The notes beneath the pieces are model-generated. The model saw only the letters and a program-made list of their open reading frames with translations, was not told the DNA's origin and searched no databases. The position numbers and the translations under genes were made by a program. Positions 25,898 through 32,913 of a stretch of DNA of 41,825 bases are shown here, piece by piece (positions within the stretch are counted from its first letter, which is position 1; each line of letters starts with the position of its first letter). Source of the DNA: Kofleriaceae bacterium (GTDB taxonomy: Bacteria; Myxococcota_A; Polyangia; Haliangiales; Haliangiaceae). The stretch lies in NCBI GenBank assembly GCA_044230415.1, contig JBGARE010000037.1, forward strand, positions 64,001 to 105,825, written 5' to 3'.

Positions 25898-26127
25898 ATC
25901 TCGTGGGTATCACGCCGTCGCGCCTCGCGCGAGCAGCGGGTCACGCGAGCAGCGGGTACCGCATGATCGCGCTGGTGCCCCGCCGCATCGCCGTCTGCCA
26001 GTTGACGGCGCCCAGCCGCACTCGAGGACGATGCTCTTCTCCCGGATCGTCGCGACGAGCGATCGAGAGAGCGCGTCCGCGGGGTGAACCGACGATGTCC
26101 GGATCGAGCCTGTAACAGACGTATTCG

Positions 26128-26536
26128 ACGCCCACGCGGCGGGCTACGTGCCCGCCTTTCCGCGGAAGCCGTCGTCGATGTTCGATGCATGGCGTCGAGT
26201 CGACACGCCTTCGCGTCGTCCGGGCGGCCGAGGTCTTCGCCGTCGATGCGGACGTTCGCGCCCACGGGCGTCGAGTCGCGCATCGAGTCGTAGCACTTCG
26301 CATTCGTGCAGGCCGCTGCAGTCGGCGTGCGGACGTACGCGCCCACGTGGGCGTCGAGTCGGTGCGCCCACGTGGGCGTCGAGTCGCCGGTCGTTGCGGC
26401 GTGCGCGTTTCCGCGGAAGCGTTGTCGATGTTCGATGCGCCCACGTGGGCGGGCTACATGGCAGCTGGTCGTTGCGGCGTGCGCGTTTCCGCGGAAGCGT
26501 CGTCGATGTTCGATGCGCCCACGTGGGCGTCGAGCG
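26128..26536. repeat. Intergenic repeat array. There are two full 62-bp direct repeats (period 78 bp; 26390..26451 and 26468..26529) plus a degenerate partial copy (~26150..26200). Each carries the perfect palindromes TTCCGCGGAA and CGCCCACGTGGGCG. Extra copies of CGCCCACGTGGGCG followed by TCGAGTCG lie at 26340..26353 and 26365..26378, with degenerate copies near 26128 and 26258.
   Basis: Seen directly in the sequence. Coordinates were cross-checked against track ORFs 26148.. and 26306.., which translate the repeats (AFPRKR...SMRPRGR twice). It lies between the histidine-kinase stop (26596) and the response-regulator start (25897). Confidence 0.75.
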
Positions 26537-26595
26537 TGCGCACGGGATCTCGTGGTGGTCGCGATCGGATCAACTCACCGGTGATCCGGTGGTGT

Positions 26596-28398
26596 TCAGG
26601 TCGCGTTCGGAATCACGAGCCGAAACTCGGCCCCACGGCCATCGGGACCCTCGCCCAGCTCGATGGATCCGCCCGCGGTGGCGACCAGGTGCTTGCACAC
26701 GGCGAGGCCAAGGCCAGTGCCGACACCCGCGGCCTTCGTCGTGAAGAACGGATCGAACACCTTCGCGCGATCGGCGGGCTTCACGCCCGGACCCTCGTCG
26801 CGCACGAGGATCTGGGTCGCGATGCCGCCGGGCGCGGGCTTCACGATCAGGGTGATCGTGTTCCCGCGCGACGTGCCATCGGGGTCTTGTGTTCCCGACA
26901 TCGCCTGCGCGGCGTTCTGGACGAGGTTGACGAGGACTTGCTGGAGCGAGTGCGCGTCGATGGCGAGCGGCGTGGTCGACTGCACGTCGGTGACGTAGCG
27001 GACCTTCGCCTTCTTGAGCTGCGGTTCGAGGAGGGCGCCCACGTGCCGCGCGACCTGCGCCGGGTCGCTCTCGCCGCGATCGGTGGCGCTGGTGGCGACG
27101 GGGCCAGCGGTGACGATCGATCCCGAGCCGCGGGGCGTGCGTGCGTATTCGAGGAGGCCGCCGATGATCTTCTTCATCCGCTCGGCCTCGCTCGCGATGA
27201 GCTCGAGGCCGGCGCGATCGGGGTGGCCCTCGGGTTTGTCCTCGAGCAAGAGGTTCGCGTAGCCCATCACCGTGGTCAGCGGGTTGTTGACCTCGTGCGC
27301 GACCTGCGCGGACATCACGCCGACGGATGCGAGGCGATCACCGCGCGCGAGGGCGGCTTGCAGCTCGGCGCGTTCGGCGATGCGCTTGGCCATCTCGTCG
27401 AGGCGCTGGCCGAGCACGCCGATCTCGCCGGGACCGTCGACGACGTGGTCATCGTCGGGGGCGATCGTGCCGCTCGCGATGGCATCGGCGCGGCGGGCGA
27501 GGGCTTCGAGGGGGCGTGTGAGGCGCGTCGCGAAGAACACGCCGAGGGCGAGGGCGAGGGCGAGGGCGGCACCGCCGATGATCAAGGTGTCGCGCGTGGT
27601 GCGGCGGGCGAGGGCGTAGGCCTGGGCTTCGGGTTGTTGGTGAAGGATGGCCCACCGCACGCCGCGCAGTGACTGATAGCTCGAGAGGTTTCGGTAGGCG
27701 GTGACCCAGCCGTGCGTCGCGATCGTCCCTTCGACCGACGAGGCAAGCGCGCGATCGACCGCGGGATCCTTTCCGGCGAGGCTCTGCGTGCCGACCGGGC
27801 CTTGTTCGCTCGACGCGACCGGGACACCCGCGCCGTCGACGACGAGCACGCGCGCACCGGCGCCGAGTCGCGCGGCCGACAAGAGGTCGCGGACGAAGCC
27901 GAGGTCGAGGCTCGCGACGACGACGCCCATGAGCTCGCCCGTGCGGCCACGGGCCTGGACGACGAGCTGGACGACGGTGCGGCCTTCTACGTGGCGTGCA
28001 TCGCCGATGTAGCCGCCGAAGCTGTGGCTGCCGACGTCCGCGCCCGCGGGGACGACGTCGCCGTAGAGGAGCGCGCCCTCGGGATCGACGATCGACAGCG
28101 AGTGCACGATCGGCACGTCGCGGCGCAGTCGCTCGAGGAGGAGCTGCGTGGTCTTCGTGTCGGTGGGCGCGTCGGCCCACGTGGCGGCGGCGAGCTCGAC
28201 CGTGCGCCGCGAGTCCTGCAGCGTGCCGTCGAGGGCGGCGCCGAGCGCGCGAATGTGGGCGAGCGCGCCGCGCAGGACTTCGCGTTCGACATCGCCGCGC
28301 GCGCGAAAGATCGCGAGGGCACCGACGACGATCGTGGGCACGATCGCTGCGAGCGCGAGGACGAGCAGGACTCGCCAGCGCAGGGTGCCTTGGTTCAC
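26596..28398 (-). CDS. Sensor histidine kinase: TM1, a periplasmic (Cache-like) sensor domain, TM2, HAMP, HisKA (HEVNNPL), HATPase_c.
   Basis: The start was taken at the GTG (VNQGTLRWRVLLVLALAAIV), 111 codons inside track ORF 26596..28731. That start overlaps the upstream gene's stop (GTGA). The kinase C-terminal boxes are present (GLGLAVCKHLVATAGGSI). Confidence 0.85.
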   Translation of the reverse strand: MNQGTLRWRVLLVLALAAIVPTIVVGALAIFRARGDVEREVLRGALAHIRALGAALDGTLQDSRRTVELAAATWADAPTDTKTTQLLLERLRRDVPIVHSLSIVDPEGALLYGDVVPAGADVGSHSFGGYIGDARHVEGRTVVQLVVQARGRTGELMGVVVASLDLGFVRDLLSAARLGAGARVLVVDGAGVPVASSEQGPVGTQSLAGKDPAVDRALASSVEGTIATHGWVTAYRNLSSYQSLRGVRWAILHQQPEAQAYALARRTTRDTLIIGGAALALALALGVFFATRLTRPLEALARRADAIASGTIAPDDDHVVDGPGEIGVLGQRLDEMAKRIAERAELQAALARGDRLASVGVMSAQVAHEVNNPLTTVMGYANLLLEDKPEGHPDRAGLELIASEAERMKKIIGGLLEYARTPRGSGSIVTAGPVATSATDRGESDPAQVARHVGALLEPQLKKAKVRYVTDVQSTTPLAIDAHSLQQVLVNLVQNAAQAMSGTQDPDGTSRGNTITLIVKPAPGGIATQILVRDEGPGVKPADRAKVFDPFFTTKAAGVGTGLGLAVCKHLVATAGGSIELGEGPDGRGAEFRLVIPNAT

Positions 28399-29222
28399 GT
28401 CGCGGAGGATAGACGAAGTCCAGCGGCGATCGCGGCCGCGACCGGCTCGAGTCGGACGATCATGTCGAGCTGCGTGCGCGCGAGGTGCAGCTGGGGCGCG
28501 AACATCAGCTCGCGGCGGGCGGTGATGCCATCGCCGATCTCGTAGCGGCGCACGTCGGGTGGCAAGGACAGGAGGAGGTCGCCGAGCGGGCGCACGTAGT
28601 GGAGCTGGTACGGCGAGATGCGCTCGAGGATGGCCACGGTGTCGCGGTCGCTCGTGCCGGCGGCGAACGCGCGCTCGGCGGCCACGCGGAGATCGTCGCC
28701 GCTCGCGATGCGCTCCTCGAGATCCGCGCACTGCCGCGCGAGATCGCGGCGGGCGTTCGCGATCAGCTGCTTCGGATCGAGGGCCCGCGCGACCCGCTTC
28801 TTCGCGACCGGGGCGCTCGCTTGCTCGACGCGCCGGAGGACGAGTGCGCGGTAGGACGCGGCGAACAGGATCACGAACAGCGTCTCTTCGAACGGACGCG
28901 GCGGTGCGACGGTCACGAGATCGTCGACGAGCGCGAGCACGCCGGCGAGCGTGAGCACGTAGCGGCGGCGCGGCGTCCGGCCCTTGCGGCGCGGAGGGCG
29001 CAGCGTTCGGATGCGGCCGCGGCGGCCGAGCGCTTCCATCGCGCGGCGGACGCGCGTGAGATCGAGGTCGGCGCCGGGGTGGCGGACGTCCATCTCGATC
29101 CAGTTGCGGAACAGCAAGTAGAAGAACCGCACGTCGCGCTGCTGGAAGCCACGCACCTCGTCGCGATCGACGGTCGCGACCAGATCGGCGGCGAGCAGAG
29201 ACGCGGTCAGGAGGCTATCCAT
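28395..29222 (-). CDS. Hypothetical protein; a possible winged-helix regulator (weak PaaX/PadR-like 'R..GRRGRIR...RRRYVLTLAG' wing).
   Basis: ORF track 275 aa. It is translationally coupled to the downstream HK and divergent from the nitroreductase/PaaK-like pair across a palindrome-containing 74-bp spacer. Confidence 0.5.
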   Translation of the reverse strand: MDSLLTASLLAADLVATVDRDEVRGFQQRDVRFFYLLFRNWIEMDVRHPGADLDLTRVRRAMEALGRRGRIRTLRPPRRKGRTPRRRYVLTLAGVLALVDDLVTVAPPRPFEETLFVILFAASYRALVLRRVEQASAPVAKKRVARALDPKQLIANARRDLARQCADLEERIASGDDLRVAAERAFAAGTSDRDTVAILERISPYQLHYVRPLGDLLLSLPPDVRRYEIGDGITARRELMFAPQLHLARTQLDMIVRLEPVAAAIAAGLRLSSAT

Positions 29223-29233
29223 CGCAGGAGCGT

Positions 29234-29254
29234 ATTACAGACAATGTCTGTAAT
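29234..29254. promoter_or_regulatory. Perfect AT-rich 10-1-10 inverted repeat ATTACAGACA-a-TGTCTGTAAT in a 74-bp divergent intergenic region; a candidate operator.
   Basis: Seen directly. It is strikingly AT-rich against ~70% GC background (coordinates ±1). Confidence 0.5.
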
Positions 29255-29296
29255 GCACCGTAGCCGTCGTGGATGCGGACTCCTAGGGTCAGCGCC

Positions 29297-30316
29297 ATGG
29301 ACTCTCCGTGGCACGGGATCGGGGCGCTGGCGCGCTGGGCGCCGACGCCGCACAACACGCAACCGTTTCGCATCCGTCCGCGCGCCGATGGCGGCGCCGA
29401 CCTGCTGCTCGTGTGCGAGCGGCTATTGCCCGACGAGGATCCGGGCAACGCGTACGTCACGAGCGCGTTCGGCGTGTTCGCGCTGGCTCTCGAGCACGCG
29501 GGCCGCGCGCTCGGCTACCGGGTGACCGTCACGCCGATCGCGGAGCTCGACGCCGCGTCGCTCGACACCCAGAGCGGCGACATCGTCCTCGGCGACGCGA
29601 CGCTCGCGTCTCGAGATCCCGGCGAGCGCACGGCGGCGGACAGCGAGCTGATGGCGCTGCGCCGGACGTCGCGCATCCCGTATCGGCCGACGCCGATCGC
29701 CCCGTCCGTGCGCGAGTACTTGTGCGAGGTCGCCGCCGCGGGCGGGCAGCGCTTGACCATCGTGACGGAGCCCGCGGCCGTGCGCGCCGTGCTGCGCATG
29801 AACGCCGAGGCGATCGTCGACAACCTCCAGCATCCCGCGGAGCGCGAGGAGATCCGGCGCTGGCACCGCATCGGGCCCACGCCCCGTCACGGCGATGGCC
29901 TGTGGCAGGCGCCGATGAACCAACCCGCGTGGCAGCTCGAGCTCGCGTTCGGCGCACCGCGCCTCCTCGCGTGGTCACCGATCCGCGAGCTCGCGATCGA
30001 GAACTACCTGCGCACGCAGGCGGGCACGCAACACGTCGCGCTCCTCGAGGGTCCGTTCGCGACGTGGCCTGCGCGGATCGCCGCGGGTCGCGCGCTGTAC
30101 ACGCTGTGGCTCGCGATGGCCGAGACGGATGTCTACATGCACCCGTTCGGCTCGATGCTGACGAACGCGCGCTACGCGGCGTGGATCACCGAGACGTTCG
30201 ATACGCCGGCGACGTGGCTCGTGCTGCGCCTCGGCTACTCCGATCCGCCACCGCCCGCGCCGCGGCTCGCGTCGATCGTGGTGTCCGGCGCCGTGTCCGG
30301 TGCGGTGCACGCATGA
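29297..30316 (+). CDS. Nitroreductase-fold protein (~340 aa, two-lobed; Acg/SagB-like size class).
   Basis: The N-terminal ARWAPTPHNTQPFRIRP matches the nitroreductase 'APS.hN.QPW' signature. Its length is about twice a minimal nitroreductase monomer. The start was taken at MDSPWHG (codon 9 of the track ORF). Confidence 0.6.
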   Translation: MDSPWHGIGALARWAPTPHNTQPFRIRPRADGGADLLLVCERLLPDEDPGNAYVTSAFGVFALALEHAGRALGYRVTVTPIAELDAASLDTQSGDIVLGDATLASRDPGERTAADSELMALRRTSRIPYRPTPIAPSVREYLCEVAAAGGQRLTIVTEPAAVRAVLRMNAEAIVDNLQHPAEREEIRRWHRIGPTPRHGDGLWQAPMNQPAWQLELAFGAPRLLAWSPIRELAIENYLRTQAGTQHVALLEGPFATWPARIAAGRALYTLWLAMAETDVYMHPFGSMLTNARYAAWITETFDTPATWLVLRLGYSDPPPPAPRLASIVVSGAVSGAVHA

Positions 30317-31773
30317 GGATCGTCGACGAATTCGTCGGCAGCGTGCTCGAGCACTCGCTCGCGGCCGCGCGCATGTCGTGGCACTCGTATCGCCTGTTGT
30401 TCGCGCCCGTGCTCACGGAGAACGTGCGCCTGCGGATCTCGAAGCTGCGCGCGCGCGCCGTCGCGTGGTCCGCGCAGCGCGAGGTGCCCGCGTATCGCGC
30501 GCTGCTCGAGGAGCACGGCATGCGCCCGTGCATGCGGTTCGAGGATCTCCCGATCATGGACAAGGCGTCGTACGTCCATCGCTTCCCGCTCGCGGCGACG
30601 TGCCGCGATGGCGTGCTGCCGGCGCGCGGCGCGGTGATCGACGAATCGAGCGGTTCGAGCGGGACCGCGAACAACTGGGTCCGCGGTCCCGCCGAGCGAC
30701 GCGCGACGCGGCGGACGATCCAGTACGCGGCGCGCGCGACGTTTGGCGATCGCGACTTCACCGTGCTCAACGCGTTCGCGCTCGGTCCGTGGGCGACGGG
30801 GATGAGCGTGTCGATGGCGCTCGCCGAGCGATATCTCGTGAAGTCGATCGGGCCGGATGTCGCGAAGATCGTCGCCACGCTCGAGCTGCTCGGTCCCAAC
30901 CGGCCGTATCTGATCGCGGGCTATCCGCCGTTCCTGAAGCTCTTCTGCGACACGGCGAAGCTCGATTGGTCGCGCTACGAGGTCTACGCCGTCGTCGGCG
31001 GCGAGGGGATGTCCGAGCCGATGCGCGCGGCGCTCGATCGCTGCTTCGTGCGCACGATCTCGTCGTTCGGCGCGTCGGATCTCGAGATCAACATCGCCGC
31101 CGAGAACGACTTCACGATCGCCGTTCGGCACGCGCTCGCGAACCAACCCGCGTTCGCGCGCGATCTGTGCGGCACCGCGTCGATGCCGATGGTGTTCCAG
31201 TACGACCCGCTCGACTACTACCTCGAGACCGCGCGGTCCGGCGATCTGCTCGTCACGGTCAACCGCCTCGCGAACGTGTCGCCGCGCATTCGCTACAACC
31301 TGCGAGATCGCGCGAGCGTGGTCACGCGCGCGCACGTGAAGGCCGTCGCGGCCGATCACGGCGTGACGCTGCCGCGATCGTTGCCGCTGCCGTTGCTGCT
31401 CCACTGGGGCCGCGTCGATCACGCGGTCGCGTTCTACGGCTGCAAGCTCACGCCGGACGATCTGCAGCACGCGATCTTGCGCATCCCCGAGCTCGCTCGC
31501 GACGTGGCGGAGCTCGCGTTTCATCCGTACGACGACGAGCACGCGAACAAACGCCTCGACATCTGGATCGAGCTGCGTCCGGAGAGCGCGCTCGTCGCGA
31601 CGGACGCGCTCGCGGCGGAGCTCGTGCGCGCGCTCGGCGAGGTGAACCAGGATTTTCGCGAATCGATCCGCATGGTGCCGCCCGAGCGCGCGCCGCGGCT
31701 GCAGCTGTTCGCGTCGGGGCAAAGCCCGATCGCGAATCAGGACGCGCGGATCAAGAAGCAGTACATCGTGTGA
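30313..31773 (+). CDS. PaaK / coenzyme-F390-synthetase / CapK-family adenylate-forming enzyme (phenylacetate-CoA-ligase-like).
   Basis: Its ATG overlaps the previous stop (ATGA). It has the IDESSGSSGTANNW P-loop-like adenylation motif, a GYPPFL motif, and overall PaaK-like length and domain order. It was read in frame within track ORF 29308..31773. Confidence 0.7.
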   Translation: MRIVDEFVGSVLEHSLAAARMSWHSYRLLFAPVLTENVRLRISKLRARAVAWSAQREVPAYRALLEEHGMRPCMRFEDLPIMDKASYVHRFPLAATCRDGVLPARGAVIDESSGSSGTANNWVRGPAERRATRRTIQYAARATFGDRDFTVLNAFALGPWATGMSVSMALAERYLVKSIGPDVAKIVATLELLGPNRPYLIAGYPPFLKLFCDTAKLDWSRYEVYAVVGGEGMSEPMRAALDRCFVRTISSFGASDLEINIAAENDFTIAVRHALANQPAFARDLCGTASMPMVFQYDPLDYYLETARSGDLLVTVNRLANVSPRIRYNLRDRASVVTRAHVKAVAADHGVTLPRSLPLPLLLHWGRVDHAVAFYGCKLTPDDLQHAILRIPELARDVAELAFHPYDDEHANKRLDIWIELRPESALVATDALAAELVRALGEVNQDFRESIRMVPPERAPRLQLFASGQSPIANQDARIKKQYIV

Positions 31774-32913
31774 CTAGCGCTGCTTCGCGAGACGCGCCCA
31801 GCCTCGGCGCACGCCATCGATCGCTTCCTTCGGCGTGGCGTCGCCCGCGACCACGGCGGCGAGCGCGGGGTTCAGATCGTCGAACAACAGCGGCGTGGTG
31901 ATCACGCGCGGCAACATCTCCGCCGAGCGCAGTGCCTCGGCGGCCGCGCGCGAGAGTGCGGGCGCTCGCTCGAGCGCGGCGATGCGCGTGGGGATCGTGC
32001 GGAACGCGTTCGCGAACGTGACCTCGACGGGAACGCTCGCGAGATCGGCGGCGAGTCGCCATCCATCCGCGGGGCGCTTCGCGCAGCGAGGCACGACGAG
32101 CAGCTGCCCGCCGCGCGGTGCGTGCGCGATCGGCGTCACCGCGATGCGCTCGGGATCGCGCAACGCCCCGAGCTGCCACGGGCCGGTGATCCAGTACGCG
32201 ACCTCGTGCGAGGCCCAGCGGCGAAGCTCGTCCGGCGCTTCGCTGCCCGCGGCCGGCGGCGGCGCGACGACGTCGCCGAACATCTGCGCGTAGCGCTCGA
32301 GCGCGCGCGCCGCGTTGTCGATCGTGCCGACCGATGCGGGGAGCGCCTGGACACGATCGACCGCGAAGTCGGCGCCCTCCGCGCGCAGCCACGGGACGAG
32401 CCAGTAGCCATCGACGCGCGTGGCGAGCGGAAACCGACGGCCCTCGGACTTCGTCGCGCGCGCGGCGGTCACGAGGTCATCGATCGACGGCGATGCGGGC
32501 GCGGGCGTCGCCGAGTCGCGGATCACGATCAGCCCGTCGAGCGTCTGCGGCACGCCCCACCACGCGCCGTCGAGCTGCGCGAGGGCCGCCGCCTCGGGCG
32601 TCCAATCGAGGGTGGCGAGCTCGGCCGGTGGCGCCACGAGCTGCGAGCGCAGCCCCGGGAGCCACGTCGCATCGATGCGGATCAGATCGGGGCAGGTGGT
32701 CCCCGCCACGAGGATCTCGCTGATCACCTGCTGGCCGCGCGCGAACGGCACGAGCGACGAATCCACCGCCATGCCGCGCTCGGCGATCGTGGCGTTGAAC
32801 AGCTCGGTCTCGTCGGGCGAGAACGTGTGCAAGAAGCGGATCGGCGGCGGCGCGGGATCGGATCCGCACGCGCCGACGGCGGCGAGTACGAGGGGCGCGA
32901 TCCGACCGGTCAC
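31774..32913 (-). CDS. ABC transporter extracellular solute-binding lipoprotein (family-1, sugar/maltose type).
   Basis: The start was taken at the GTG (VTGRIAPLVLAAVGACGS lipobox), by codon arithmetic. The SBP-like body includes GAWWGVPQ..., WLVPW, ITGPWQ. Its stop abuts the convergent PaaK-like stop. Confidence 0.7.
   Translation of the reverse strand: MTGRIAPLVLAAVGACGSDPAPPPIRFLHTFSPDETELFNATIAERGMAVDSSLVPFARGQQVISEILVAGTTCPDLIRIDATWLPGLRSQLVAPPAELATLDWTPEAAALAQLDGAWWGVPQTLDGLIVIRDSATPAPASPSIDDLVTAARATKSEGRRFPLATRVDGYWLVPWLRAEGADFAVDRVQALPASVGTIDNAARALERYAQMFGDVVAPPPAAGSEAPDELRRWASHEVAYWITGPWQLGALRDPERIAVTPIAHAPRGGQLLVVPRCAKRPADGWRLAADLASVPVEVTFANAFRTIPTRIAALERAPALSRAAAEALRSAEMLPRVITTPLLFDDLNPALAAVVAGDATPKEAIDGVRRGWARLAKQR

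Follow-up and report, generated by a model that had tools for sequence, protein, structure and literature searches.

A widespread flavoprotein–ligase gene pair beside a probable regulator–operator cassette in a Kofleriaceae bacterium

The locus and its flavoprotein–ligase pair

The locus considered here lies in a 41.8-kb stretch of contig JBGARE010000037.1 from a Kofleriaceae bacterium (Myxococcota), hereafter called the window, within which all positions are counted. Two overlapping genes, one for a flavoprotein and one for an adenylate-forming ligase, are divergent from the gene of a winged-helix regulator, and the short spacer between them holds a perfect palindrome. The original prediction, made from the DNA sequence alone, had described these elements as one module; all of them are real, but they do not make up a single unit, a near-universal gene pair being joined here to a separable, clade-restricted regulator–operator cassette. 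The two units appear through different comparisons, the pair through comparative genomics and the regulator with its operator through phylogenetic footprinting; the mechanism of the regulator is one that we infer. The features are the following.

29297..30316, + strand: single-chain double nitroreductase-fold flavoprotein, 339 aa, of the flavin-dependent oxidase (FDO)/Acg type
30313..31773, + strand: PaaK-fold adenylate-forming ligase, 486 aa, ATGA-coupled to the flavoprotein gene
28395..29222, - strand: orphan winged-helix regulator, 275 aa, whose predicted architecture resembles that of PadR and includes a long helical C-terminal domain
29234..29254, no strand: perfect palindrome of 21 bp, predicted as the probable operator of the 275-aa regulator
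26596..28398, - strand: sensor kinase, 600 aa, dCache-HAMP-HisKA-HATPase (Pfam domains; GTGA overlap; identical gene calls on identical contigs)

The ATGA coupling announced for the pair is present at 30313-30316, where the TGA of the flavoprotein gene shares bases with the ATG of the ligase gene. The flavoprotein start used here, ATG 29297, is the choice of independent gene calls on identical contigs (the longest open reading frame, ORF, begins at 29273) and gives the spacer towards the regulator gene a length of 74 bp (29223-29296). At the other end, the ligase stop ends at 31773 and the stop of a convergent solute-binding-protein gene begins at 31774, so that the genes abut without a spacer; no terminator-like site was found at this junction.

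The scan for relatives took one genome per species. At least 204 genomes were found to carry a ligase relative, and 80 loci were kept for neighbourhood analysis. The flavoprotein gene stood directly 5' of the ligase gene, on the same strand, at 79 of these 80 loci, the lone exception being truncated at a contig end; the conservation by which the prediction proposed to judge the pair is thus found. Stop and start codons typically overlapped by 4 or 8 nt, and two proteins, P0366 (806 aa) and P0378, are fusions of an N-terminal ligase to a C-terminal Acg-like nitroreductase domain, i.e. in an order reversed relative to the operon. At least 12 phyla are represented, with CPR (Candidate Phyla Radiation) bacteria, Melainabacteria and one archaeon among them. 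The taxa are Myxococcota, Gemmatimonadota, Krumholzibacteriota, Actinomycetota, Bacteroidota (cultured Hymenobacter species), Proteobacteria, Planctomycetota, Acidobacteriota, Patescibacteria (Saccharibacteria, Gottesmanbacteria, Peribacteria), Melainabacteria, a cyanobacterium, Eremiobacterota/Vulcanimicrobiota and a Thermoplasmata archaeon.

Past close relatives, neither all-versus-all ORF clustering nor a Pfam census of the 130 nearest neighbours revealed a third conserved gene beside the pair, and no small ORF was conserved 3' of it across phyla. Candidate small ORFs 5' of the pair were rejected, being N-terminal (twin-arginine, Tat) extensions of the flavoprotein. Rfam at gathering thresholds gave no riboswitch and no other RNA for 11 loci with long upstream gaps, and PADLOC defence models gave no match. 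Full-text literature searches returned the ThiF-FDO systems treated below, but no description of an FDO paired with a PaaK/F390-synthetase-type enzyme. These neighbourhoods bear on a reading in which the pair modifies a ribosomally synthesized peptide (RiPP-type modification) by adenylation of a peptide carboxylate and dehydrogenation, as in azole-forming systems. Nitroreductase-fold dehydrogenases do pair with ATP-dependent enzymes in thiazole/oxazole-modified microcin (TOMM) and linear azole-containing peptide (LAP) systems; here, with no conserved small ORF upstream or downstream and no YcaO, protease or transporter among the nearest neighbours in the Pfam census, such a role is highly improbable.

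In six Hymenobacter-type loci (L044, L045, L046, L051, L055 and L059) a Tat-bearing pair sits inside a carotenoid/light locus, with ispH, crtB and crtI divergent upstream and an extracytoplasmic-function (ECF) sigma factor and a MerR/B12-binding (LitR/CarH-like) regulator downstream, which suggests light or photo-oxidative control of the pair in that context. L059 comes from Hymenobacter busanensis MA3 and L055 from H. ginsengisoli JCM 17841. One of the six, L044, is labelled Rhodanobacter, but its neighbours crtI, crtB and the ECF sigma factor share 79-92% identity with those of Hymenobacter; either mis-binning or horizontal transfer could account for this. The position of the pair in these six loci, between crtB-crtI and the two regulatory genes, is one point in favour of a redox or photo-oxidative stress module, whose enzymes would restore or dispose of a common metabolite that has been damaged, instead of making a product, by a chemistry compatible with the one that we propose below. 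The broad and patchy distribution of the pair, reaching minimal genomes, is another, and the DosR stress regulon of Mycobacterium tuberculosis includes Acg-family relatives (PMC10404671). The carotenoid/light context is limited to one genus-level group, however, and no stress regulator is conserved near the pair outside the Hymenobacter-type loci, so that we hold this explanation to be unlikely.

Two more lineages drew attention. Metagenome-assembled genomes of Gemmatimonadaceae (L012-L016, L025-L031 and L056/L058/L077/L080) show that a single family contains the pair in three divergent lineages, with ligases ~57%, 51-53% and 43% identical to the window ligase; the first lineage is cytoplasmic, and members of the other two have Tat signals, some with a lipobox. 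In Melainabacteria/Obscuribacterales (L061, L066, L068, L071, L073, L082, L083 and L052), an unusually long non-coding sequence (550-760 bp) upstream of the pair is conserved among related genomes, with no Rfam match and no conserved ORF in that stretch.

The window flavoprotein matched the NCBIfam model of the Acg family FMN-binding oxidoreductases, NF047509, with an E-value of 9e-33 over residues 18-331 (model positions 4-312 of 319). This Acg model, at 114 bits, fits it more closely than does the Rv1355c model, at 24 bits, and its orthologues scored 139-190 bits against NF047509, the Tat-bearing ones up to 190. A profile built from 31 homologues matched the MsAcg crystal structure 2ymv (E 1e-6), and the segments APTPHNTQP, RRTSR and PPxAPR, invariant among these 31 proteins, aligned to the corresponding segments of MsAcg; the C-termini differ from one homologue to another. 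RRTSR (residues 122-126) and PPxAPR (318-323) correspond to RRTDR and PPPTPR, the FMN-phosphate-binding motifs of MsAcg, so that the FMN-binding residues on which the prediction made its case depend appear, by this alignment, to be kept. Because of the match to the Acg model and the alignment of the motifs to MsAcg, we place the protein in the FDO subgroup; by sequence it is an FDO/Acg-type member of the nitroreductase superfamily. One chain of ~340 aa spans two nitroreductase halves in both the Acg and the 2ymv match, and the double-length nitroreductase fold that had been proposed is therefore confirmed at profile level. The FDO subgroup is made of proteins of ~340 residues, and its only characterised members, TyzC, OxzB and TrzS, desaturate N-acyl amino acids in an O2-dependent reaction (PMC10404671; PMC12856293).

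About 16 of the 80 flavoprotein orthologues possess an N-terminal extension with an RRxFL twin-arginine signal and a hydrophobic region, e.g. MKRRDFLFRTALGAGFALLG and MKRRSFLRGIGLLALAP, and in several of them a lipobox comes after the signal, as in ...LVAAC. The window flavoprotein (N-terminus MDSPWHG) carries no Tat signal. Export by this route would deliver the protein to a compartment without NAD(P)H, which favours a predicted NAD(P)H-independent oxidase over an NAD(P)H nitroreductase. It would also imply that the ATP-dependent ligase either takes the first step or works on the flavoprotein prior to export.

For the ligase, no Pfam or NCBIfam model matched any of 30 family members, even at E-values up to 10, and a PDB sequence search reached PaaK at E 0.03-0.05 only. 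The protein has the two-domain ANL fold, and PaaK-family enzymes, ClxA and EhpF figure among its top structural neighbours. The PaaK-like adenylating enzyme of the original prediction is thus found again at the level of the fold; in the profile search suggested for it, the sequence models of AMP-binding and PaaK proteins failed to recognise the 30 members. Source annotations call the enzyme phenylacetate-CoA ligase. The P-loop, D110-E-S-S-G-S-S-G-T, and a C-terminal lysine, K481, are invariant in the family and would have the catalytic roles that analogy assigns to them. The family is a large one, with 2022 representative clusters at E up to 1e-3 and at least 574 clusters (50% identity) at E up to 1e-30. 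Among its distant relatives, P0397, P0353, P0357 and P0396 have large N-terminal extensions, one with a LuxD-type Acyl_transf_2 domain, and three proteins of ~970-990 aa look similar; a separate set (P0289, P0299, P0304 and others) shares an uncharacterised N-terminal domain of 130-190 aa. ClxA and EhpF make products without CoA.

The F390 synthetase, an enzyme of the same PaaK-like group (COG1541), adenylylates a deazaflavin. This precedent is relevant to the possibility that the ligase is a maturation factor, which would alter the bound flavin by nucleotidylation or in some other way, or covalently modify the flavoprotein before its export. The strict 1:1, translationally coupled pairing, the ligase–flavoprotein fusions and the lack of any other conserved pathway gene nearby would all suit such a factor, as would the Tat signals on ~16 of the 80 flavoproteins, since a ligase must work before export or remain behind. 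Yet no characterised FDO needs a factor of this kind, TyzC and MsAcg binding ordinary FMN (PMC10404671; 2ymv), and the C-termini of the flavoproteins are variable and therefore an improbable site of ligation. A maturation role for the ligase is accordingly one that we rate as quite unlikely.

The winged-helix regulator and its candidate operator

The palindrome, ATTACAGACAaTGTCTGTAAT, is made of ATTACAGACA, a central A and TGTCTGTAAT, i.e. of two 10-nt arms with 100% complementarity around a centre of 1 nt. Both arms end in TGTAAT. When up to 3 mismatches were tolerated, the site at 29234-29254 was still unique in the window and 100 shuffles gave 0 matches; the perfect repeat reported for the 74-bp spacer is there as described. 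It forms an AT-rich island, with a GC fraction of 0.475 against ~0.7 in the flanks.

The 275-aa regulator has sequence relatives only in a small myxobacterial family of 30 clusters. Searches of Pfam, NCBIfam and PDB profiles yielded nothing significant, and none of 26 family members matched the PadR model of Pfam (PF03551), even at E-values up to 10. The predicted structure (pLDDT, i.e. predicted local distance difference test, of 89) consists of a winged helix followed by long helices, including a coiled-coil hairpin, and its best Foldseek matches were PadR folds, 5x11 and VanR on top, at a weak E-value of 0.075. The guess of a winged helix-turn-helix protein is in this way supported by the model, with PadR as the closest fold.

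Conservation of the spacer argues for the palindrome being, probably, the operator of this regulator. Next to the pair, the regulator gene was found only in Haliangiales/Kofleriaceae relatives. At seven such loci, whose proteins are 64-95% identical, TACAGAC-N3-GTCTGTAATG is the sole invariant block of the spacer, the central bases being variable; the palindrome is thus present in the orthologous regions, as the prediction had required of it. The motif ACAGACANTGTC occurred in 9 of 93 fetched loci, and all nine have the regulator gene, with each match in its upstream spacer; about six of the nine are independent, because L089-L091 are near-identical copies of the region of the window. Homologues of the regulator with 44-46% identity (in Corallococcus terminator and on two metagenome contigs) are divergent to a gene of the fatty-acid-hydroxylase superfamily, and the spacers facing it hold CTACAGACAGTGTCTGTAG, ACAGACAGTGTCAC and GCAGACACTGTCAC, with ACAGACAnTGTC as the common motif. 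The motif thus follows the regulator and not the target, which is the signature of a regulator–operator cassette; on this comparison, regulator and palindrome are a separate, clade-restricted cassette that is reused on another target gene in other myxobacteria. At L092, a second, imperfect copy of the operator, CTACGGACAGTGTCTTTCC (1610-1630), lies nearer to the fatty-acid-hydroxylase gene in a spacer that also holds the perfect palindrome, and the sequence there suggests two binding sites.

Since the spacer measures only 74 bp, occupancy of the palindrome must affect both divergent transcripts. No sigma-54 -24/-12 element was seen by eye in the spacer. The arm TGTAAT could, as a guess, be a -10 box.

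The PadR likeness was also weighed as a sign of an ordinary catabolic or detoxification pair for aromatic acids, in which a PaaX/PadR-type repressor responsive to the acid would govern a phenylacetate/aryl-CoA ligase and an NAD(P)H nitroreductase. Phenolic acids are common ligands of PadR-family regulators, PadR-family 5x11 and VanR are the top Foldseek matches of the regulator, and the ligase has the PaaK fold and phenylacetate-CoA ligase annotations. Several findings oppose it, however: paa or other ring-cleavage genes were found near the pair at none of the 80 loci, the ligase has diverged beyond the reach of every AMP-binding or PaaK model, the characterised relatives of the FDO/Acg-type flavoprotein are oxidases, its Tat-exported orthologues would have no NAD(P)H, and the pair occurs in CPR bacteria. 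We therefore consider an aromatic-acid pathway very unlikely.

On the minus strand, the regulator gene is itself coupled to a sensor kinase. The GTGA overlap at 28395-28398 reads tcac on the plus strand, and on the minus strand the TGA stop of the regulator overlaps the GTG start of the kinase, which therefore extends over 26596-28398 (600 aa). The coupling had been foreseen, and this part holds for the window; as a general part of the module the kinase does not stand, because other relatives carry other genes in its place. The GTGA-coupled histidine kinase is common to the closest relatives only, and the genes downstream of the regulator elsewhere encode a Ser/Thr kinase, a convergent phospholipase D, a pseudouridine synthase or an M1 peptidase. 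The histidine kinase is a lineage-specific passenger, outside the conserved unit. Beyond its stop, towards an NtrC-type response regulator, a gene-free spacer of ~700 bp (25898-26595) is dense in local repeats: GCGCCCACGTGGGCGTCGAG, which includes the palindrome GCCCACGTGGGC, is present three times, and the 31-nt unit TTTCCGCGGAAGCGTCGTCGATGTTCGATGC two to three times, both nowhere else in the window. These repeats could be enhancer sites for a sigma-54 activator, or a small repeat element.

Proposed working of the locus

The overall reading that we put forward, tentatively, is that of an obligate flavoprotein–ligase operon, whose products share the chemistry of one molecule, under a PadR-like regulator that would bind the palindrome. 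The two enzymes would act together, probably as a complex. The ligase would use ATP to adenylate a carboxylate, and would then either conjugate it (as an amide or ester, CoA being optional) or activate it for cyclisation; the flavoprotein would oxidise or desaturate the same molecule with O2, independently of NAD(P)H. The logic would match that of the ThiF-FDO oxazolone synthetases, except that a PaaK-fold enzyme would do the adenylating, and the ligase step would most likely come first, because some flavoprotein orthologues are Tat-exported. A lipid-like or aromatic carboxylate would be the favoured substrate class. Indirect hints of a lipid-like or hydrophobic substrate are the alternative target of the regulator, of fatty-acid-hydroxylase type, and the LuxD-like acyltransferase domains fused to distant ligase relatives; Grigg et al. 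propose that FDOs desaturate lipid species (PMC10404671). As to control, a dimeric, PadR-like winged-helix regulator would bind the palindrome at 29234-29254 and act on its own transcript (here with the coupled histidine kinase) and on the divergent flavoprotein–ligase operon, most likely as a ligand-released repressor.

Several results weigh against this proposal. No member of the family has an established substrate, product or activity. The flavoprotein scores below the curated cut-off of NF047509 (114 versus 199 bits) and below the Pfam threshold for Nitroreductase, PF00881 (17.7 versus 23.5), and its binding of FMN is predicted from the motifs alone. Tat export would part it from a ligase that stays in the cytoplasm, an arrangement that a maturation role for the ligase would fit at least equally well. 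Unlike in the oxz, tyz and trz clusters, the surroundings of the pair contain neither a conserved acyltransferase gene nor any other conserved pathway gene, and the presence of the pair in CPR bacteria with minimal metabolism speaks against a specialised lipid natural product. On the side of the regulator, the modelled similarity to PadR is weak and has no counterpart in sequence; a scan of the spacer for sigma-70 promoters and terminators detected none, and the overlap of operator and promoter would thus follow from the geometry of the spacer only.

The readings as maturation factor, aryl-acid catabolism and RiPP modification are nevertheless ranked below that of two enzymes working on a shared molecule. 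Going further, the pair might be an unrecognised, ancient and horizontally mobile two-enzyme system, which would make ThiF-independent dehydro-acyl, oxazolone-type metabolites or, in the Tat-bearing lineages, a ligase-dependent modified flavin or flavoprotein outside the cytoplasm; as a whole this extension is rather doubtful.

Known relatives and significance

The closest known analogue of the pair is found in the oxazolone synthetases of the ThiF-FDO kind, namely OxzB (Pseudoalteromonas rubra) and TyzB/TyzC and TrzS (Mycobacterium tuberculosis). There, TyzC and OxzB desaturate N-acyl amino acids with O2 alongside an ATP-dependent ThiF-type enzyme (PMC10404671), and TrzS is cited likewise (PMC12856293). 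Like these systems, the window combines a ~340-aa FDO-type flavoprotein with an ATP-dependent carboxylate-adenylating enzyme, from adjacent or fused genes (PMC10404671, PMC12856293). The ThiF-FDO systems act on one small molecule; for the pair of the window the same is proposed by analogy. In contrast to them, the adenylating partner has a PaaK/ANL fold instead of a ThiF/E1 fold, no N-acyltransferase is conserved nearby, the flavoprotein is on the Acg rather than the Rv1355c side of the family, and some orthologues are predicted to be Tat-exported.

With Acg, Rv3131 and Rv3127 (FDO-B; NF047509; MsAcg 2ymv), the flavoprotein has in common a single-chain double nitroreductase fold, the motifs APxxHNxQPW and RRTxR and a similar length. 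It differs from them by its score below the family cut-off and by its obligate ligase partner, which PMC10404671 and PMC12856293 do not mention for the mycobacterial proteins.

The ligase is ~14-19% identical to AMP-ligases of the PaaK family (PaaK 2y4o, BT_0428 4r1l, 6siw, ClxA 9s3l, EhpF 3hgu). Unlike these enzymes, and unlike F390 synthetase and LuxE, it has no P-loop lysine (SSGSSGTA) and no paa context, and is always accompanied by an FDO.

As in the PadR regulators (Bacillus subtilis PadR with its operator, 5x11; VanR; LmrR; Rv1176c), the regulator appears, from its model, to have an N-terminal winged helix and a helical C-terminal domain, and a palindromic candidate operator lies by its own gene, with divergent target genes. 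Unlike them, it lacks membership at sequence level, is much longer (275 aa) and has a long coiled-coil hairpin. Whereas PadR operators are of the spaced ATGT/ACAT type, the candidate operator of the window, ACAGACA-N-TGTCTGT, has contiguous half-sites.

The partnership of an FDO with an adenylating enzyme was known before; new here are a partner with the PaaK fold, forms exported by the Tat route, so broad a distribution and the family of regulators. Because the ligase family has no Pfam or NCBIfam match, genome-neighbourhood mining based on such models would, we infer, overlook the pairing. The regulator stands for a new winged-helix family that has a defined candidate operator and recurs with other target genes. 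Flavoproteins of the Acg type (FDO-B) are widespread and present in the dormancy regulon of M. tuberculosis, and none has an assigned substrate; an obligate adenylating partner argues that the substrate of this branch of the FDOs is, or becomes, a carboxylate conjugate. If the pair does represent a new metabolite route, or a ligase-modified flavin or flavoprotein, it would for the first time open a functional approach to the Acg-like proteins within the nitroreductase superfamily, a branch linked to mycobacterial dormancy.

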